Of a stretch of DNA of 29,221 bases, positions 2,249 to 12,329 are shown piece after piece. Within the stretch, counting starts at the first letter, position 1, and each line of letters opens with the position of its first letter. The notes under the pieces were generated by a model. It saw only the letters and a program-made list of their open reading frames with translations. It did not search any database and was not told the DNA's origin. Source of the stretch: Pseudobdellovibrionaceae bacterium (GTDB lineage: Bacteria > Bdellovibrionota > Bdellovibrionia > Bdellovibrionales > Bdellovibrionaceae); NCBI GenBank assembly GCA_043720315.1, contig JAYSSX010000639.1:1-29221 (forward strand), given 5' to 3'. Position numbers and translations under genes: made by a program.

Positions 2249-4429
2249 ATGAAAAAACTACTCGCAATTTTGGGCCTACTGTCAATTGTGTTTACAGCCG
2301 TGCTTAAGCCCCAACCTGCAAAAGCTGCTGATGATCAAATGCATCTTTATGGATCTGCATTTATGGCCATGGCCTCAGGAATACATCCTGACTATGCCAT
2401 TGCAATGTCATTAGGAAATGAAATGATCGACCGTGGAATCTGGACAACTCCAATGGGACTTCCGACTCCTCGCCTTCTATTCCACTTTCTAGGCACTCCT
2501 GCTGATTTTAATGTGGATGAAGGAATTATCCGTCGTGGTTTAGCCATCGCAACTATTAAACATCCACTGTTTTATAACTTGCTACATAAAGGTATGCTCA
2601 CAAAAAACCCCGTAGATCTTGGCAAGGCGCTGCACCTGTTAACTGATACCTTTTACCATGCCGGTTACTCGAATTTACTTGGCCATGGTGAAGGTGGTCA
2701 TCGTCCCGATATGCCTTATGATGAAATCTTAAAAGCGCGTCTTTGTTTTCAAGCGATCGTGGAAGTTCTTTTCATCATCCGCGACATGCAGCCGGGACCA
2801 AAGGACTTTAGCGTGCTAAAAAGAATCGTTGAAGACGTCAGTAAAAATCCTGCTTACGAAAGCAAATTAAAAGTGGTCACTGGCGCAAATACGGTTGACG
2901 GAATCGTTGAGATTCTTGCTCGTCGTCCCGATTTATTTACTCAAGTAGTATTGGATCACCCACAAGTAAGAAACACTTTTTTTACAACCATGGAAAGAAC
3001 TCCTGGCTATCGTAAATTATCAATGAAAGAAATTTTCGGACTTCTTATTAAAAAGGGCTATACAACTTTAAAACCACAAGACTTTGCCGAATTAGCAACC
3101 CAATTTCGTGATCTTTCAGCGCGAACTGATTTGATGCCGATGGATTCTACAAAAATCGTGATCTACCGTTTTTTACAGTTGCAAGATCCTATGCTTAAAC
3201 AACAGGCCGCTGAAGAGCTGAAAACCATTGGTTACGATGCCGCTGAAATGAAGGCAATATTAGACCGTGGTCACTTTGACTTTTCTACATTGGCTGGCTT
3301 TGACGACATGAAAGGTCTTAATGCAGAAATCAACACGAATTATATTAAACATATCGATTCTTTAAGATTCCTAACTACTAATTTGGAAACTTTTATGAGT
3401 CAAATTACCGAAATCGATAGTAACGGAAAAAAATCTTTTCTTCCTTCGTCTCGTTGGCCGCAAGACGTTCGTACTTTTGCCGACACTCTTCTTCCAGATA
3501 TGCTTGCTTGGACTCGCATTATTAATCATGGTGGAGCGATCCGTCTAGAAGAACATCGTGACATCGGAAATCTTTTTTCTACTCAAACCGATGCAGAAGC
3601 TGTTATTAGTTCTATCGATCGTGACCCAAGCTACTTGGAAAACACAGTTGAAATTCTTAAGGGAATCGAATCAAATGCTAAGACTTTAAAAACAGCGGCG
3701 CGTTTAAGAGCGTTGGCGGAGATCGCAAGATCTATTTCCTATGAACTTACTAAAGATATGTTTCCGATGAAAACTTCGGCTGATCATAAAGCTAATTTTG
3801 AAAATGATAAGTTGTCGCATGCTGTATTTGCAAAAGAAAGTCGAATTATGGCGGCTCGTAATTTAATTACGGAATTCTTTAACATCGATATTTTGCGTGG
3901 ACCAGATCCATTCCACGTTTTCGTAAAACAAAAGATGCAGGCCGGCTTCACTCGAATAAAGGGCAAAGTCCCACAAGTCGTTGCTCAGGTGGATGCACAA
4001 GTTGCTGAAATTATGGAATTAGCGCGTGAATTCAATCATTCCATTGGGTTTGGACAAAAAAATGCAGACGGAAAAATAGAACTTCCAATTGATCGTCCAG
4101 ATGTTTTTCGAGTAGCGCCTAACTTAAGCCTTTCAGGTTATCTCTCTTGGACAATGTCTACGTTTCAGTATGTTGGCCGAGTCATGTTAAAGCGTGCCCA
4201 ATCTAAAAACGCTGCAATCATGGGTTACGTTTCTAATGGTGAAAAAATGAAGTCCGAAGTTGTTCAGCAAATTGAACGGCAATATTACAAGCCGACAGAT
4301 TCACAAAAATCTAATTTGTGGAACCTTAAATTCGGTGAAATGAATTCACGTGATGAAGCTCGTAAATCTAAAGTAACAGGCCTTCCAGGAATCGTTCGCT
4401 GTGAAAGCCTTCATATCCGCGCAAAATAA
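2249..4429 (+). CDS. Secreted protein (726 aa) with N-terminal Zn-dependent phospholipase C/P1-nuclease-like (DUF6765-like) domain
   Basis: Sec signal (AKA/ADDQMH). Putative metal ligands: His6 of the mature protein, NEMID, FHF, LHLLTDTFYH and GHGEGGHRPD. SD AGAGGG upstream. Confidence 0.7.
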   Translation: MKKLLAILGLLSIVFTAVLKPQPAKAADDQMHLYGSAFMAMASGIHPDYAIAMSLGNEMIDRGIWTTPMGLPTPRLLFHFLGTPADFNVDEGIIRRGLAIATIKHPLFYNLLHKGMLTKNPVDLGKALHLLTDTFYHAGYSNLLGHGEGGHRPDMPYDEILKARLCFQAIVEVLFIIRDMQPGPKDFSVLKRIVEDVSKNPAYESKLKVVTGANTVDGIVEILARRPDLFTQVVLDHPQVRNTFFTTMERTPGYRKLSMKEIFGLLIKKGYTTLKPQDFAELATQFRDLSARTDLMPMDSTKIVIYRFLQLQDPMLKQQAAEELKTIGYDAAEMKAILDRGHFDFSTLAGFDDMKGLNAEINTNYIKHIDSLRFLTTNLETFMSQITEIDSNGKKSFLPSSRWPQDVRTFADTLLPDMLAWTRIINHGGAIRLEEHRDIGNLFSTQTDAEAVISSIDRDPSYLENTVEILKGIESNAKTLKTAARLRALAEIARSISYELTKDMFPMKTSADHKANFENDKLSHAVFAKESRIMAARNLITEFFNIDILRGPDPFHVFVKQKMQAGFTRIKGKVPQVVAQVDAQVAEIMELAREFNHSIGFGQKNADGKIELPIDRPDVFRVAPNLSLSGYLSWTMSTFQYVGRVMLKRAQSKNAAIMGYVSNGEKMKSEVVQQIERQYYKPTDSQKSNLWNLKFGEMNSRDEARKSKVTGLPGIVRCESLHIRAK

Positions 4430-4436
4430 AATCCGA

Positions 4437-4490
4437 TCCGTGACTTTTGATTGAGTACAATCAGTTCGAAATCACGGAAGTTTTATTTAA
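4437..4490 (+). terminator. Probable intrinsic terminator
   Basis: Outer stem TCCGTGA/TCACGGA, inner stem TGATTG-AGTA-CAATCA, followed by AGTTTTATTT just after the stop at 4429. Confidence 0.6.
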
Positions 4491-4570
4491 ATTTTTTCTA
4501 TCAGAGTTTGTCGAACTTTTTTACGTTAATGGACTATCTATTACTTTTTTACCTGTAAAAATCCTAACAG

Positions 4571-4599
4571 TTTAGATTACAACCATTTGCTACTATACT
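4571..4599 (+). promoter_or_regulatory. Candidate sigma70 promoter for the CDS at 4633
   Basis: TTTAGA-N17-TATACT; SD AGGAG at 4622-4626. Confidence 0.4.
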
Positions 4600-4632
4600 C
4601 CTGGCTGAATTACCCCCTACCAGGAGTACTAA

Positions 4633-6528
4633 ATGCGATCCCCGACGATACATAAAAAGGCCATCACTATGGCTTTAGTTGCGGCTTTAATTACGCCAGT
4701 AACATCCATACAAACACAGGCCGCCAGCAAAACTGGCCACAAGAAAGCTAAAAATCTGATCGAGCGATTAGTTGGATTTGACGTCCACTTGGCGCAGTTT
4801 GGATCTAATGTAAATCAAATGGTAGATGAAGTTCCCTTATCTGCAGCGACTCAGTCGGGAATGGCCTCAGACAAGCTGCACTTTCCAGCCGTTAAAACTC
4901 CGTCTGACTTAAAGAATGGCGATCTTCTTAATATCCAAAATAACAATGGTAAACGCACCCTAATGGGCGCAGTAAAGTCATTTGTGGTAACCAGCTCTAC
5001 GCTTCGTGGTGTGGGTGCCTTAGGCAATGCTGAGGGCTTTGAAATGGCTGCGCAGTCCTTAGACAAGGGTAATGCCACTGGCTTTTTTATGGGAATGCAC
5101 TACGCCATGGATATGAGCGCTTTATTTCATGATGGTTACTTAGGATCTCTAAATGCTCCTATCCCAGGATTAAACCGATTTCTAAAAGTGCCCTTGGGTC
5201 ATTTGGTCGACGGAACTTCTCCTGATGAACTAACCGTTGCTAAAATCTATTTCATGCTGGAAAACCTAGGTCCTTTCTTAATCGCATTTCGCGAGGCCCA
5301 AAACGGAGTCGGCGTAGACAACGTTTGGTTAGAACATCTAAAAGCTCAGGGCGTAAATGTAATGGATGCGAGCGCTATTGCAACATGGTTTTTCAAACAA
5401 AAAGAAATCGAACAAGTATTACGCCAAGAACTTCGCGGCGACCGTGTAGATCCTTATGTTGACTCAGTATTAACAGATCTTCGCTTTGCACTTACTGAAT
5501 TAGGATTTATTTCTGAAGAAAATTACAAATATATGGACGAGAATCTTGCGTTGATTAAAACACGAATGCAAAAAGCCCGTTTAGATATGAACGAATCGGT
5601 ACATTTGATCGACTTAGTTAAAGAATTTGCCAATCAAGCATGGAAAGACGGAAAATTTAACGAGCCAAACGTCATCGCCGAAACTACAACTGATTATCGC
5701 GGAAAATACGAGGCGACTCAAAGATTAGATCAGTTGATCATCGAGCCCAGCTATTTGAATCCGGCTATGCCACAGTATGTTCGTGATTCCGTAGAAGCAG
5801 GTTTAATGTCAAAATCAACGAATGCTCCTTATACACGCGGTTGGATTTTAGATCAGATCACTGAAAAATTAACTCGCGGAATGTTACATTCGCGTTGGTC
5901 AAAATTCAATTATGCTTTTTACAATGAAGACGTTAAGGCCGCCAAGGCCCAAGCCGAAACCGATGCCATTGATAAAATGGAAATGATCCTTTTCAAAAAT
6001 AAATCGATTTATATGTATGAAAATCCAAAAATGGTGTATTGGAATAAAGTATTTAAAACTTACTGGTCATTAACAATCGATGAACGTGGAAATTCATTAT
6101 TTAGAAAAGCGATTTCATTTTTCCGTGTGATTCTAGCTACCGAATTATTTCCGGGTTATGACATTCACAATCCCCGATTTACAACAAAAGTAGAGATTTT
6201 CTTTAAGACGATTGGATACCTCTTTAGCGAGGAACTAAAAAATCCTTTAACGACCAAAGGAAATTTAGCCGTGCGTTTTGATGATGTCAGGGATCGCTTG
6301 ATCAAAGAAATCAGAGTCAAATATCCAGATGGAATTATGACGGAAGCGACTTTGGCAAAAAATCGTGATCACTTTGTCACCGTCCAGTCCAGATACAATG
6401 ACAGTAATCAACGTTCGGGCCTAATCCAAAAAACCGCTGGCTTCATTGTCGATAAAGTCGATACACGTGATGCAAAGAAAAATAGCGTAAACCTAAGTCT
6501 ACGCTGCGAAAATGTTCATTTGAAATAA
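4633..6528 (+). CDS. Secreted protein (631 aa), paralogue of 2249..4429, with a Zn-PLC/P1-like N-terminal domain
   Basis: Sec signal (TQA/ASKTGH). Motifs NQMVD, LHF, MHYAMDMSALFH and GHLVDGTSPD align with the neighbouring gene. Confidence 0.7.
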   Translation: MRSPTIHKKAITMALVAALITPVTSIQTQAASKTGHKKAKNLIERLVGFDVHLAQFGSNVNQMVDEVPLSAATQSGMASDKLHFPAVKTPSDLKNGDLLNIQNNNGKRTLMGAVKSFVVTSSTLRGVGALGNAEGFEMAAQSLDKGNATGFFMGMHYAMDMSALFHDGYLGSLNAPIPGLNRFLKVPLGHLVDGTSPDELTVAKIYFMLENLGPFLIAFREAQNGVGVDNVWLEHLKAQGVNVMDASAIATWFFKQKEIEQVLRQELRGDRVDPYVDSVLTDLRFALTELGFISEENYKYMDENLALIKTRMQKARLDMNESVHLIDLVKEFANQAWKDGKFNEPNVIAETTTDYRGKYEATQRLDQLIIEPSYLNPAMPQYVRDSVEAGLMSKSTNAPYTRGWILDQITEKLTRGMLHSRWSKFNYAFYNEDVKAAKAQAETDAIDKMEMILFKNKSIYMYENPKMVYWNKVFKTYWSLTIDERGNSLFRKAISFFRVILATELFPGYDIHNPRFTTKVEIFFKTIGYLFSEELKNPLTTKGNLAVRFDDVRDRLIKEIRVKYPDGIMTEATLAKNRDHFVTVQSRYNDSNQRSGLIQKTAGFIVDKVDTRDAKKNSVNLSLRCENVHLK

Positions 6529-6586: not shown

Positions 6587-7522
6587 TTACTGAAGAACTA
6601 GATTCTGCGCCAACTGGGCGTAGAATCTATCTTGTTCTCGCTTAATATAATCTAGGTTCAACACACCTAAAGGGAAAAATAAACGGTGATCCACCACTTG
6701 TTCCCAGTGCTCCAGATGCGCATAATCTTTCATTAACTTTGGTGTAATATTTCGGCCGGATTTTGAAATAAAATTTTTCACCGCAAAAGCCGAATCCCAA
6801 GTCACAATACCATCTGATGCTGTATCTCCGCCCAAAGCATCCGTTACCATCAGTACTGAACTTAATTGTTTGGCATCAAACCAAAGAAGCCCCGGTGACT
6901 GAAAACCACCATAAACTTGTACTGACAAATCATCAGGTACTTTTAACTTATTCATAAAATCAGTTATATTTTTGCGATTTAATTCAAGAAGATTTCCTAA
7001 ACTGATCCACTGAAGAAGATAATCAATTTTTGAAGCAAAGTCTTCAACATTATCTAAAAATCGAAGTCCAGAATAAGGAGTACTAATTGTTACAATTTTA
7101 GTAATCGGTAAATTAGTTTTCCCCGAAGCGTATAATGAATATAATCCACCAGCACTATGGCACACTAGGTACATTTTTTGATCAGCCCGCAATTTGCTTT
7201 GAATGCTGGTTAAAAAATGAATCAGAAGTTCGCCATTAACGGCGATGCCACCAATAGGTTTTAAATTATTCACTACATAAACATCAAAACCTTGTGCTTG
7301 GATTGCGGCTGAAATCGAACGGCTAAAATACGGATCCTTCCAAGGATTTCCCGACTCATTGGGCGCAGGAATACTGGGCGCCAAAGAGTTAAAAAAACCT
7401 GGAACCAAAACAACAACATCCCGTTTCAAATTCTTAACATTTCCTGGATAAAATTGTGCATTTGCTAAAAAAGAAAAACACAAACTGAACAGGATCAAAA
7501 CGGATTTAAAATATTTCTTCAT
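6587..7522 (-). CDS. Secreted alpha/beta hydrolase (lipase/esterase, PGAP1-like)
   Basis: Signal peptide; oxyanion motif VLVPGF; nucleophile elbow CHSAGG; STPYSG; SDGIV (Asp); HLEHWE (His). SD GGGGAGGG. Confidence 0.85.
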   Translation of the reverse strand: MKKYFKSVLILFSLCFSFLANAQFYPGNVKNLKRDVVVLVPGFFNSLAPSIPAPNESGNPWKDPYFSRSISAAIQAQGFDVYVVNNLKPIGGIAVNGELLIHFLTSIQSKLRADQKMYLVCHSAGGLYSLYASGKTNLPITKIVTISTPYSGLRFLDNVEDFASKIDYLLQWISLGNLLELNRKNITDFMNKLKVPDDLSVQVYGGFQSPGLLWFDAKQLSSVLMVTDALGGDTASDGIVTWDSAFAVKNFISKSGRNITPKLMKDYAHLEHWEQVVDHRLFFPLGVLNLDYIKREQDRFYAQLAQNLVLQ

Positions 7523-7729: not shown

Positions 7730-9811
7730 CTAGGCACCAAAACCCAGCCAGTTAAAAACGGGTGCTTCTTCAACTTGTGAAGGATCTTCTTTCAAATACA
7801 AATCAATGTATGTTGTATATGTCGGCTTAATTTTAGCGGTAATTTTTCGACTGTAAAGTCCCGGCAAACTCAAAGTGAAACTCAAAGGAATTCCGGCATC
7901 AAGAATGGCTCTGGCCTCTGCCTCACGACCAGGCTTTGGATAAGCTCGACCCATAAGAACAATTCGAATTTCTTTAGAGTTTTTGTACTTCTTTATCGTA
8001 GCAAATGAACTCATAAACTGACTTCGTCTTCCAACTTGGTGAATAAAGGGATCGGATTCAGTATCAACGCGACTTTGAAGTTTTGAATCATCACTTTCTA
8101 CATTCTTGATCGACGGATCGTTCATAAATTTTTTGATGTGATTCAAATCGTTTTGTGTCATTTCGTAACTAAGCGGAACACGTACGTTTAAAGTTAAGAT
8201 GTAAGTTCCTAACTCGTCTCTCAATAAATTACTGTCCGTTGATCGCGCTGATGCATTAGTCACATTAAAGTATTTATTTACTAAATCCTGATCGCAATTT
8301 ACGTTTGATCCTGCTTCACATTTAGTCAACGTTTGAATGACATGTTTGAAATTAGGATGTTTACAAGTTGCAGGATCGGCACATTCTTTATTCATAATAA
8401 CGACGTCAACGCCTAACCCCTCTGCAAAGTCTGTCATAGCTTTTGCCGCATCTGTACCGACACCACCTGCGGCCATTAAAGCCGGCGAAATCGTGGCATG
8501 CATATTTTCAACAAAAATTTCTTGGTTATTTACAGAAGATTTTTTTTCCAAATCAAAAGTGTTTGCGAACTGGTTCATCGTAATTGGCTTTTGTTCCGAA
8601 CCTTCTGGTTCTACGTAATATAAAAAGTCGGCAACTGCATTTGGTCCCTCAACCGGACCGTCTGCTTCCAAACGTTTCACACCAGCGAAAACACTAACTA
8701 AACCATCATTTAACTGTTTATAAGCAGGGGTTGTAAAGCCATTACAAGTGACTCCTTTGTCCGTCTTCTGCATACAAGGGAATACTCCCACGATGCTAGT
8801 CCATCTTGTTTTAAAGCGATTTCGTAAAGACTCGTCTGATAAATGCTTGATTCGACCTAAACGCATCAAGTGAATTGTTTCACTAGTTGGGCGCATATTA
8901 TCGAATTCAAGTGGATGCAGATTTCCAATTTTTGCATTCTTCGCCGCCATTCCTATAACGCCGGATGCTGCTCCAAGCGCTTTCAAAATTGCAGCAGTAC
9001 CCAGTCCACCTTTTTCAAGGCTATTGATATTGTTACAAGCGGCTTTTACGCTGGCATTTATGGAATTTAATTGTCTGGTGGCTTGCGGTAAAGATTTCTC
9101 AGCTCCACTTTGGATACTTTTTGCATACTTAATTAAATCTACTTTTGACGTAATACTAGCGATTTCTGGAAGTCGGCAAAAAGCTTGCAGCTTTGGAATT
9201 GTTCGTTCCAATTGCGAAGTGTCACCTTGACCGATGAATCCCCAACCCAACTCTGCCATTACTGATCCCCAGAAAACCGGACCTAAACCAATGACATTAT
9301 CCACTTTTGATAAAACGTTTTTTAAAGTTTCATACTCAGCAGCAGTATATTTTTTTTGCGGACCTAAAAAATTATGCATGGTATCGTAGTACCAAGTCAT
9401 GGTCATCATACCACCCATTGAATACGCAAGAATGGATATTTTATCATTCGGACCCAAATAAGGAATTTGTGCTTTTGGCCCGATGAAAAAATCGCGATTT
9501 AATTTTTGTCCGATTGAGTGTGGATCCCAATTAAAGCCGTCTCCCTCGACTGCTGCGCCCACCGGATAAGTCCAATTGTAAGTTTTTACCTCGATACTTG
9601 GATCAATTTTTTGCAAGACACCAGCCACAAATTCATGAAATTCACCGTAGGATTCTACATTTCCACGCACACCATGCAAGGTAATGACGTGATGAGTTCC
9701 ACCTCTATTTTGAGCAATGTTGTTAGTTGCAGGCGTACGTATACTTTCGCTTGTACATGCCGTTAAAACAGCAGCACAAACCATAACTAGTAACATAAAT
9801 AACGTTTTCAT
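7730..9811 (-). CDS. Large lipoprotein alpha/beta hydrolase (lipase-like, 693 aa)
   Basis: Lipobox LTAC; HVITLHGVRG; AYSMGG nucleophile elbow; GPVFWGS; EADGPV; ENMHA; many Cys. SD GGAGG. Confidence 0.8.
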   Translation of the reverse strand: MKTLFMLLVMVCAAVLTACTSESIRTPATNNIAQNRGGTHHVITLHGVRGNVESYGEFHEFVAGVLQKIDPSIEVKTYNWTYPVGAAVEGDGFNWDPHSIGQKLNRDFFIGPKAQIPYLGPNDKISILAYSMGGMMTMTWYYDTMHNFLGPQKKYTAAEYETLKNVLSKVDNVIGLGPVFWGSVMAELGWGFIGQGDTSQLERTIPKLQAFCRLPEIASITSKVDLIKYAKSIQSGAEKSLPQATRQLNSINASVKAACNNINSLEKGGLGTAAILKALGAASGVIGMAAKNAKIGNLHPLEFDNMRPTSETIHLMRLGRIKHLSDESLRNRFKTRWTSIVGVFPCMQKTDKGVTCNGFTTPAYKQLNDGLVSVFAGVKRLEADGPVEGPNAVADFLYYVEPEGSEQKPITMNQFANTFDLEKKSSVNNQEIFVENMHATISPALMAAGGVGTDAAKAMTDFAEGLGVDVVIMNKECADPATCKHPNFKHVIQTLTKCEAGSNVNCDQDLVNKYFNVTNASARSTDSNLLRDELGTYILTLNVRVPLSYEMTQNDLNHIKKFMNDPSIKNVESDDSKLQSRVDTESDPFIHQVGRRSQFMSSFATIKKYKNSKEIRIVLMGRAYPKPGREAEARAILDAGIPLSFTLSLPGLYSRKITAKIKPTYTTYIDLYLKEDPSQVEEAPVFNWLGFGA

Positions 9812-9954: not shown

Positions 9955-11061
9955 TTAGAACAAGTCTGAAAAAGAAGCAAAAGTCATTAAGTACCACTGA
10001 AGGTCCTCATGCCGACCAAGAACTGGGTAAGGTTCGTTTTTTCCCAGTTTAACTTTGTTTTCTACTCCAAGAATAAACCAAAGGTTTTTGTGTACATGGA
10101 TTTCCGTTGTTGGTGCAATCTTTAAATAATCCACTTCTGGATCTTCATTATTCACTTGGTCACTCATGTGATACCATTCATGCACCATACCAACATCCAA
10201 AGCAGGAGTAAAAACAGAGTTCACTCTTTTCGCCACTGTCATGTAGTGATCCAAAGCACCTAATTTGTTAGTGCGTGCATTAATAAATATTTGACCGTTT
10301 TTTACTTGAACCTGGCGGTAAGCTTTTTGACTCTGAACATAATAATCTGGTTTTAAGTTGTAGCCAACATTCCAGCCATCTTGAAATTCTTTTTCAAAAC
10401 GAGTCCAAGAAGACAAACGTGTCTGCATTCTTTTTTCTTTTGAAGAATCACTGGTTGGTAAATAAAATTTGTAATCGCCCCACAAAATCCACTCATTGGC
10501 AGATTCCCAAATTTTATAATTTGTGTAAACCATGTGTAAATCTTGGCTTACCGTTTTCATTTCTTGCGAAACCCCTTTGTCGTCGTAGCCAGCAGAATTA
10601 ATTCCAATGGCCGGGCGAATCGCGAATTTAGAATCTTTTGATAATTTGTAATTGAAAGAAAGGTACATGTAATTTGATATACTAGGTGAACCTTTGCTGA
10701 TGTTGTCTTGATTAGCACTTGAAAACGCAAAATAAGATACGCGCCATTTGCTGCGGCCTTGGTTTTGCTCAACTAGACTATATGAGTTCGAATTTGCCGA
10801 TCCATCTGTGGCAAAAGTACCTATTGTAGAGGCAGGTATTAAGCCATCGTCTACACCGTCTTTTAAAGTCGATGCTAAAACATAGTTTGGTTTTAATTCG
10901 GCTTTTCCAAGAACCTCAGCAACAGGCTGAACCACCTGATCTAATTTCAAATCCGAAACCCTAACTACATTGGGAGCGTTTGTTTCAGCAGCCAAAACAT
11001 TGTCCGCAGACAAAATTTGGAACGCTAAAAAACTGAATAGATAAATGGCTACCTTAATCAT
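9955..11061 (-). CDS. Hypothetical outer-membrane beta-barrel protein
   Basis: Sec signal, alternating aromatic beta-strand pattern (WRVSYFAF, YLSFNYKL, WILWGDYKFYL, WNVGYNL), C-terminal Phe. Start moved to ATG 11061 behind SD AAGGAG. Confidence 0.65.
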   Translation of the reverse strand: MIKVAIYLFSFLAFQILSADNVLAAETNAPNVVRVSDLKLDQVVQPVAEVLGKAELKPNYVLASTLKDGVDDGLIPASTIGTFATDGSANSNSYSLVEQNQGRSKWRVSYFAFSSANQDNISKGSPSISNYMYLSFNYKLSKDSKFAIRPAIGINSAGYDDKGVSQEMKTVSQDLHMVYTNYKIWESANEWILWGDYKFYLPTSDSSKEKRMQTRLSSWTRFEKEFQDGWNVGYNLKPDYYVQSQKAYRQVQVKNGQIFINARTNKLGALDHYMTVAKRVNSVFTPALDVGMVHEWYHMSDQVNNEDPEVDYLKIAPTTEIHVHKNLWFILGVENKVKLGKNEPYPVLGRHEDLQWYLMTFASFSDLF

Positions 11062-11204
11062 AAACACTCCTTGAAAGCTACCGCATCAAGTTATGGCAAA
11101 TGCTTAAATAAACCGCAAGTCAGGACTGTATTATTAGTTGCTATTGAGAGTAATCGTGAATAAATTTTCAAATCTCCTATTGGCCCATATTCCTAAGAGG
11201 TTTT

Positions 11205-12329
11205 ATGCAGAAAATTTTACATATTTTAAACCGATCACAATTGCAACATGTGATGTTGAGTCTGATCACTGTAGCCATTTTGTCTAACTGTAGTGCCCCT
11301 GCGGTGAGTACTTCCAAAACTAATACTTACAAGACTTCGGATAAAATCATCAGCGTAATGGCCTACAACGTGGAAAACTTCTTTGATACCATTCACGATG
11401 CCAACCGCAACGACTTCACCTACCTTCCCAAGGCCGATAAAACCGCACCTGAAGTTCAAAAATTTTGTGCGGCCGAAAAAGATCCATTTTACCAGCGCGA
11501 ATGTTACGACATGGATTGGTCAGAGGACGTTCTTAAAGCCAAAATGGAGCACATTGCCGACTCGGTACTGCAAATCAATGGAATTGGACCAGACATTCTT
11601 ATCTTGGAAGAAGTTGAAAACCAACGTGTCTTGGATCGTTTAAATAAGGAATACCTTCAGAAAGCGGGATATATCACCGCAACTTTGATCGAAGGAGAAG
11701 ACCGTCGCGGAATTGATATTGGTGTCCTAAGCCGTTTTCCTTTAGCCTCGGATCCCCGCTTAGTACTTATTGATTTCACTCCAGATAAAAATGACCCTAG
11801 TTGGAAAGCCCCTAAAACTCGCGGAATCATGCACGTTCCGCTAAAACTTCCTAGCGGAGATGTTCTTTATGTTCATGGGGTTCACTTACCTTCCCAGGCT
11901 AATCCTGTTCAAGAAAGAATTGATGCTGTAAATACCTTGAACAAATTGAACGAACAGTTTGCAAACAAAACAATGGCTGTCGTCGGTGGTGACTTTAATA
12001 TTACGGAAGCGGAAAACCAAAAAGATGGACTGTTTTCTAAACTTCTATCCAGCCATTGGTTGGTTTCGCATTTAATTGGATGTTTTGATTGTAAAGGCAC
12101 TCATGGGCATCGCGGTGAATGGGGCTTCCTAGATGCTTTGATTTTGACTAAAAGTTTAGGACCCGATGGAAAAGCTCCATACATGGTTGATCTAAAATCA
12201 ATCCAAGTTCCTAAACATGGGAAACATCAGTTGCGCTCTAACGGTTTTCCAAATCGTTTTGATAACGAAAAGAAAACGGGTACTTCGGATCATTTGCCAA
12301 TTTACCTGGAATTAAAACCGCGATCGTAA
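11205..12329 (+). CDS. Endonuclease/exonuclease/phosphatase (EEP) family protein, probably an exported nuclease lipoprotein
   Basis: Motifs YNVENFFD, LEEVEN, HLPS, GDFN, LDAL and SDHLPI; lipobox-like LSNC. Confidence 0.9.
   Translation: MQKILHILNRSQLQHVMLSLITVAILSNCSAPAVSTSKTNTYKTSDKIISVMAYNVENFFDTIHDANRNDFTYLPKADKTAPEVQKFCAAEKDPFYQRECYDMDWSEDVLKAKMEHIADSVLQINGIGPDILILEEVENQRVLDRLNKEYLQKAGYITATLIEGEDRRGIDIGVLSRFPLASDPRLVLIDFTPDKNDPSWKAPKTRGIMHVPLKLPSGDVLYVHGVHLPSQANPVQERIDAVNTLNKLNEQFANKTMAVVGGDFNITEAENQKDGLFSKLLSSHWLVSHLIGCFDCKGTHGHRGEWGFLDALILTKSLGPDGKAPYMVDLKSIQVPKHGKHQLRSNGFPNRFDNEKKTGTSDHLPIYLELKPRS

Follow-up and report, generated by a model that had tools for sequence, protein, structure and literature searches.

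The closest described relatives of the proteins considered here belong to an assemblage of hydrolases that comprises the zinc-dependent phospholipases C (PLC), the S1/P1 nucleases and the Het-C domains. In S1 nuclease, the zinc ligands are the main chain of mature residue 1 and the side chains of His and Asp residues (PMC5201275). Het-C toxin domains are predicted to be PLC/S1-P1-like (PMC3482391), and domains of this type are viewed as toxin modules (PMC3482391, PMC8557891). A literature search on a further family, DUF6765, found no paper, and none on this family in Bdellovibrio. Here, we describe two adjacent genes in a 29,221-nucleotide stretch of DNA (the window) from a Pseudobdellovibrionaceae bacterium. 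The window is one contig of a metagenome-assembled genome (MAG) with 698 contigs, which is 81% complete. Both genes probably encode Sec-exported metallo-phosphoesterases, representing strongly diverged DUF6765 lineages of the PLC / S1-P1 nuclease / Het-C superfamily. Rather than a new kind of system, the pair represents divergent forms of a family that is known but has not been characterised. The features are as follows; putative ligands are given with the domain to which they belong, ↓ marks signal-peptidase cleavage, and A1 and A2 are the names used below for the families of genes 1 and 2.

2249..4429, + strand: gene 1 (P0001, 726 amino acids), exported DUF6765/PLC-like protein of family A1, from the open reading frame (ORF) and its translation
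2249..2326, + strand: gene 1 signal peptide, residues 1-26, cleavage AKA↓A (AKA↓ADDQMH), read from the sequence
2327..2797, + strand: gene 1 predicted PLC/P1-nuclease-like metal-centre domain, residues 27-183; putative ligands N-terminal Ala27, H32, D61, H79, H129, D133, H137, H146, H151 and D154
2798..4396, + strand: gene 1 all-helical body or tail, residues 184-716, matching no known family
4397..4426, + strand: gene 1 C-terminal tag R-C-E-S-L-H-I-R-A-K, defined by C718 (invariant in the family), by the tag statistics and by an AlphaFold2 (AF2) predicted local distance difference test score (pLDDT) below 50
4430..4632, + strand: spacer of 203 bp between genes 1 and 2, containing a good ribosome-binding site, AGGAG, at 4622-4626 and a sigma-70-like match at 4571-4599
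4633..6528, + strand: gene 2 (P0002, 631 amino acids), exported DUF6765-related protein of family A2, from the ORF and its translation
4633..4722, + strand: gene 2 signal peptide, residues 1-30, cleavage TQA↓A (TQA↓ASKTGH), from sequence reading and the family alignment
4723..5307, + strand: gene 2 predicted, diverged metal-centre domain, residues 31-225, from hhalign to canonical domains and conserved columns; putative ligands Ala31, H36, D65, H83, H156, D160, H166, H190 and D198
5308..6501, + strand: gene 2 helical tail, residues 226-623, from AF2 secondary structure
6502..6525, + strand: gene 2 C-terminal tag R-C-E-N-V-H-L-K, in which C625 is the sole Cys of the protein

Comparison with described families

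The window proteins share with DUF6765 (PF20551) a homologous N-terminal domain and the same His/Asp columns. They differ from this family in scoring below its Pfam threshold, in forming two long-branched clades, in having Ala and not Tyr at residue +1, and in their family-specific helical bodies of 400-540 residues followed by a C-terminal Cys tag; protein 2 also lacks one His. The zinc PLCs used for comparison (B. cereus PLC, 1AH7; Listeria PlcB, 8CQM; the clostridial alpha-toxin N-domain, 1OLP; PF00882) show no significant sequence match to either protein. Here the differences are Ala at residue 1 instead of Trp, the first His at position 6 and not 14, a spacing of H-x3-D-x3-H and not x5, one extra conserved His, and a large helical body with no PLAT-like beta domain. 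The S1/P1 nucleases (P1, 1AK0; S1, 5FBA; SmNuc1, 8QJL; PF02265) resemble the window proteins in that the first His stands six residues past the AxA site, but in the latter Trp1 is absent, none of the residues could be recognised as nucleoside-binding, and the size and architecture are very different.

The Het-C / Tox-HET-C and YdjM toxin domains likewise have the appearance of PLC/S1-P1-type hydrolases and, like DUF6765-type domains, are found as C-terminal modules of RHS toxins. Unlike these polymorphic toxins, the window proteins are stand-alone and Sec-exported, carry the domain at the N-terminus, and possess no RHS repeats and no type VI secretion or PVC trafficking parts; no immunity-like gene adjoins the pair.

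Relationship and identity of the N-terminal domains

Both proteins start with typical Sec signal peptides, as judged from their sequences. The original prediction, made from the DNA alone, described the genes as tandem secreted paralogues. Pairwise BLASTP does not bear this out (best E 0.079, at the extreme C-terminus), but a relationship emerges once family profiles are used. Family A1 has 12 members at 40-51% identity and A2 has five at 38-40%, no more than five having been found in the homologue search with gene 2. Aligned with hhalign, the two families match over some 180 residues (residues 1-183 versus 1-222; prob 87%, E 3.9e-6), and the alignment pairs every motif that had been named in the prediction. 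Each was also compared with an alignment of 121 canonical DUF6765-type domains, which leaves out both window families and in which several domains were verified to lie above the Pfam cut-off; A1 gave prob 100% (E 2.9e-41) and A2 prob 99.2% (E 1.7e-19). On these profile comparisons, the N-terminal domains of both proteins are homologous beyond reasonable doubt. In a tree, A1 and A2 appear as separate long-stemmed clades, with stem lengths of 1.17 (A1) and 2.33 (A2) substitutions per site, which form an unresolved trichotomy with the canonical clade. By their sequences, then, the pair represents two long-branched lineages of one superfamily and not a recent tandem duplicate.

The individual residues on which the paralogy had been argued are in place. 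His occupies mature position 6 in both proteins (AKA↓ADDQMH and TQA↓ASKTGH), and the ungapped identities counted from it (G at +12, A at +18, S at +22, N at +25, M at +27 and D at +29) are all present. Since G+12 and D+29 fall in columns that at least 90% of the 143 superfamily sequences share, this ungapped register reflects true homology and not chance. The [FL]HF, H-x3-D-x3/5-H and GH-x3-G-x2-PD motifs also occur in both and are aligned to each other by hhalign. The last notation masks a difference, however: the superfamily consensus is GH-x3-G-H-x-PD, and its second His is retained in protein 1 (H151); Thr stands there throughout the A2 family (T195 in protein 2). A longer insert separates the HF and H-x3-D motifs in the gene 2 domain. 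The similarity proposed further down (ISYELTKDMFP versus ITEKLTRGMLH) did not survive, tail-versus-tail hhalign giving prob 1% with the two motifs unpaired; neither hhalign nor HMM comparison detected any similarity between tail 1 and tail 2.

A profile search with A1 against 1.84 billion representatives returned 132 clusters (at 50% identity) that share only the N-terminal domain of about 180 residues. Among the A1 members, 11 of 12 match Pfam DUF6765 (best E 4e-8) and four faintly match Zn_dep_PLPC, the best E among relatives being 0.04-0.06. The gathering thresholds of these two families are 26.6 bits (DUF6765, PF20551) and 26.8 bits (Zn_dep_PLPC, PF00882), and remote relatives retrieved with the A1 profile pass the former at 48-64 bits. 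The language-model neighbours of P0001 residues 27-200 are DUF6765 clusters, followed by those of Zn_dep_PLPC, VWA7_N and Het-C, the last being a distant neighbour by this method only (score 0.83). A scan of NCBIfam yielded just weak spurious matches. We consider it very likely that both N-domains are metal centres of the PLC/P1 superfamily. The prediction of a hidden Zn-phospholipase C/P1-nuclease-like active site thus stands in part: profiles place both domains within the PLC / S1-P1 nuclease / Het-C assemblage, in its DUF6765 branch, and a PLC-like fold was recovered for protein 1 only.

Several observations weigh against this assignment. P0001 itself scores below both gathering thresholds (DUF6765, 11.5 bits, E 0.23; Zn_dep_PLPC, 11.8 bits), and P0002 matches neither HMM. 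Searches of PDB sequences with HMMs of the A1 profile and of the 143-sequence profile gave no relevant match. When the canonical domains were compared by hhalign with three small alignments of PF00882-matching ORFs from related genomes, none of the comparisons was significant, the best (prob 48%) covering the H-x3-D helix only. DUF6765 has no member with assayed activity or a solved structure. Residue 1 of the window proteins is Ala and not Trp, there is one His more than in PLC and P1, and the spacings differ (H-x3-D-x3-H; H-x4-H-x2-D). In the protein 2 family T195 occupies a column filled by His in 130 of the 143 sequences, and a search with the full-length model of protein 2 left PLC outside the top 50, the list being filled by three-helix bundles of the tail (residues 271-417). 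In the PLC/P1 superfamily the ligands converge on one trinuclear zinc site, as the putative ligands here may do.

Putative metal site

In the alignment of 143 sequences, the columns conserved in at least 90% of members are H32, G44, D61, H79, F80, H129, D133, H137, G139, G145, H146, H151, P153 and D154 (protein 1 numbering). The conserved His and Asp residues among them run in the order His, Asp, His, His-x3-Asp, His, His, Asp. The ligands of PLC and of the P1/S1 nucleases follow the same His/Asp order, preceded by the main chain of residue 1 and with Asp or Glu in last place. Protein 1 keeps every conserved position.

In about 120 of 129 N-terminal members, six residues separate the first conserved His from an AxA-type signal-peptidase site; Ala or Ser occupies position -1 in 120 of the 129, and a small residue position -3 in 119. 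Residue +1 is Tyr in 94, Ala in 21, Trp in 5 and Phe in 4. The S1/P1 nucleases have a W-x4-H N-terminus, of which both window proteins possess His6 and have Ala as residue 1. By analogy with PLC and P1, the constancy of this distance makes most sense if the N-terminus freed by cleavage belongs to the metal site, in which case export and cleavage would switch the enzyme on.

Structure models

Protein 1 was modelled with AF2 using the 143-sequence alignment, and the full-length model is of high quality (pLDDT 90; predicted template-modelling score, pTM, 0.89). Checked against 48,161 PDB representatives, as the prediction invited, it best matches zinc phospholipases C, and this match spans exactly the mature N-terminus to residue 183; the match to S1/P1 nuclease structures is weaker. 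The best shape match in the Atlas is a DUF6765 cluster (template-modelling score 0.56 by target, 241 residues). A Foldseek search of the PDB with the full-length model gave just long, meaningless helical alignments. According to the model, protein 1 has a PLC/P1-like all-alpha fold. Because its pTM is high, the model also suggests that the N-domain and body of P0001 form one compact unit and are not beads on a string.

The model of protein 2 is poorer (pLDDT 79, pTM 0.73), and neither VIA-align (top 50) nor the Atlas shape search with its full-length model returned a PLC or DUF6765 row. We infer a PLC-like fold for this protein from its sequence homology alone. The long uncharacterised tails of the original prediction are real: in the AF2 models both are nearly all-helical, with no known fold or family. 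They match no Pfam family and, in structural searches, only generic helical bundles (small ones for protein 2); a language-model search with the protein 1 tail found no usable match.

Proposed mechanism and alternatives

The mechanism which we favour draws on PLC and the P1/S1 nucleases. Once signal peptidase has cut, Ala would become the first residue. The free amino group and the carbonyl of this Ala would combine with His6 and the other conserved Asp and His side chains (in protein 1, the proposed set is H32, D61, H79, H129, D133, H137, H146, H151 and D154) to form a multinuclear zinc site, and this site would activate water to cut a phosphodiester. Because the site needs the cleaved N-terminus, the enzyme would be competent only after export. 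The family-specific helical body probably gives targeting or substrate selection, and the short Cys tag would be a separate portable module, most likely a sorting or anchoring signal. Metal binding, catalysis, substrate and use against prey are all inferred. Of the two products, protein 1 at least is likely to be an active secreted phosphodiesterase.

DUF6765 is widespread (the A1 profile retrieved at least 132 clusters, at 50% identity) and has no member of assayed function; it gains here a concrete, testable proposal for a mechanism, namely a PLC/P1-type metal centre completed by an N-terminus made by signal peptidase. In Bdellovibrio-like predators the exported versions have diversified strongly and bear large helical bodies of a novel kind. 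Should these act on phospholipids or nucleic acids, they would be candidates for the poorly defined enzymes that dismantle the envelopes or contents of prey.

As to the substrate, a phospholipid is a tentative first choice, the head-group being slightly favoured. Nucleic acid is the main alternative, and we hold it to be rather unlikely; a sizeable share of the weight goes to something else. Perhaps the proteins are S1/P1-like nucleases rather than phospholipases, that is, secreted single-strand or non-specific endonucleases which digest prey or environmental nucleic acids. They do share with the S1/P1 enzymes the distance from the cleavage site to the first His, yet the nucleoside-binding residues could not be recognised and the structural match of protein 1 is better to PLC, and such an identity seems improbable to us.

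Less probable again is the proposal that one or both proteins are catalytically dead and serve a binding or structural role, protein 2 in particular being a pseudo-enzyme that partners protein 1 or acts as its decoy. The Thr that replaces the His fixed in 130 of 143 sequences is found throughout the A2 family, whose N-domain stem of 2.33 substitutions per site is accompanied by a large insert, and the full-length structure search with protein 2 listed no PLC among its top 50 matches. Against this, the other eight conserved His/Asp positions are invariant in the protein 2 family, a sign that its metal site has been preserved; protein 1 has lost none of the conserved positions; and A2-type genes stand alone at related loci and so are not obligate partners. 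Within the favoured reading, in which both are metallo-phosphoesterases, protein 2 may coordinate a smaller number of metal ions, or its activity may be changed or lost.

C-terminal Cys tag

Both window proteins end in R-C-E-x-[LV]-H-[IL], an instance of the broader pattern [RK]-C-x-x-[LIMV]-[FH] lying within the last 5-10 residues. A Cys is present in the last 14 residues of 56 of 113 long superfamily members, where about 6% would be expected, and is often the only one in the protein; it occurs in each of the 12 relatives inspected within this bacterial family. When the whole MAG was scanned, one further convincing example of the tag came up (contig C84, 1884-4106; L023), a secreted protein of about 740 amino acids with a cytidylyltransferase-like domain and no PLC-like domain. 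Its homologue in another genome (L030, 1354-3126; 29% identical) ends in K-C-G-A-L-F. Since this unrelated secreted protein and its homologue carry the tag, it is portable. It probably serves as a signal for sorting, anchoring or modification, and is a candidate for a new one. Known signals of the MYXO-CTERM/GlyGly-CTERM type do not fit, as no transmembrane helix follows the Cys, just 4-10 mostly polar residues. A C166-C718 disulfide was considered as a general feature and rejected: many members, including protein 2, have one Cys only.

It is very unlikely that the Cys works instead as an intramolecular cysteine switch, capping the active-site zinc so that the enzyme stays latent until its tail is lost: the excess of lone terminal Cys residues, their presence in all 12 same-family relatives and a tail end modelled at low confidence, which may therefore be mobile, would suit such a role, but the same tag ends the C84 cytidylyltransferase-like protein, which has no PLC-like domain, and its K-C-G-A-L-F homologue, and is thus not bound to this active site.

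Genomic neighbourhood and distribution

Among 182 genomes of the same taxonomic family the A1 profile matches 40, mostly through the N-domain only, and has no match in the largest genus (44 genomes); A2 matches five. The tandem pair is retained only in a same-genus genome. On four contigs of a related lineage, either an A1 gene (P0008, P0007) or an A2 gene (P0016, P0015) is found in the same slot. The slot is flanked on one side by HAD, methyltransferase and short-chain dehydrogenase genes, and on the other by genes for proteins of about 250 and 940 amino acids followed by TonB, PP2C and M23 genes. Two of the slot occupants lie at the following positions.

L024, 6001-8169: slot occupant
L028, 6001-7896: slot occupant

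Between two of the slot contigs one flanking protein is 76% identical and the occupants are only about 21% identical, so that the two types behave as alternative occupants of one locus. At this locus in related genomes, A2-type genes stand alone, without an A1-type partner. The swapping of the two types at one locus and the shared Cys tag point to a set of effectors that is under diversifying pressure and has a delivery signal of its own. A bolder version, which we regard as doubtful, is that genes 1 and 2 are exchangeable cassettes, each a version of one exported effector used in predation. On this view the portable, hitherto undescribed [RK]-C-x-x-[LIM]-[FH] tag, which all of them carry, would target Sec-exported enzymes that are otherwise unrelated (PLC-like, cytidylyltransferase-like) to one shared location, for example the outer surface or the prey, by way of a new pathway of sorting or lipidation that depends on the Cys.

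In some related genomes, a secreted lipase-like gene lies directly upstream of the A1 or A2 gene. Such neighbouring lipase-like genes lend weak support to a lipid substrate. On L024 (4322-5875, + strand), we noted a secreted protein of 517 amino acids with a lipase-like G-Y-S-R-G motif and no Pfam annotation on record.

Elsewhere, DUF6765-type domains are located at the C-terminus of RHS/YD-repeat proteins (P0102, P0104, P0125, P0133, P0136, P0140 and P0146). P0104 has Pfam RHS_repeat matches and P0125 is 2656 amino acids long. From its placement in these sequences, the domain is used there as a polymorphic-toxin module, in agreement with what has been published on Het-C-type domains (PMC3482391, PMC8557891).

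In the spacer between the two genes, the scan revealed no terminator-like hairpin after gene 1. The counts from the promoter and terminator scans equal the shuffled expectation; the spacer elements are consensus matches only and were not used as evidence. Downstream, the pair adjoins a cluster of genes for exported hydrolases, of which the two alpha/beta hydrolases are lipase-like.

6587-7522, - strand: secreted alpha/beta hydrolase (DUF915, HSAGG motif)
7730-9811, - strand: lipoprotein alpha/beta hydrolase (YSMGG motif)
9955-11067, - strand: outer membrane protein-like protein ending in F
11205-12329, + strand: secreted EEP-family phosphoesterase

Further members of the superfamily were encountered outside the window. 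Four secreted proteins of related genomes (L037, L038, L039 and L044), collected through weak PF00882 matches, read A↓W-G-A-x-G-H-Q at the signal-peptide junction, which is the classic S1/P1 nuclease N-terminus; because of these starts, the relatives of this organism appear to have canonical S1/P1-like enzymes as well. In the same MAG, two ORFs (C277, 925-1335, - strand; C428, 21-284, + strand) match Zn_dep_PLPC (PF00882) near the cut-off. They carry a motif of the H-T-I-Q-D-S-F-S-x-A-H type and are further PLC-superfamily members, distinct from the window pair.

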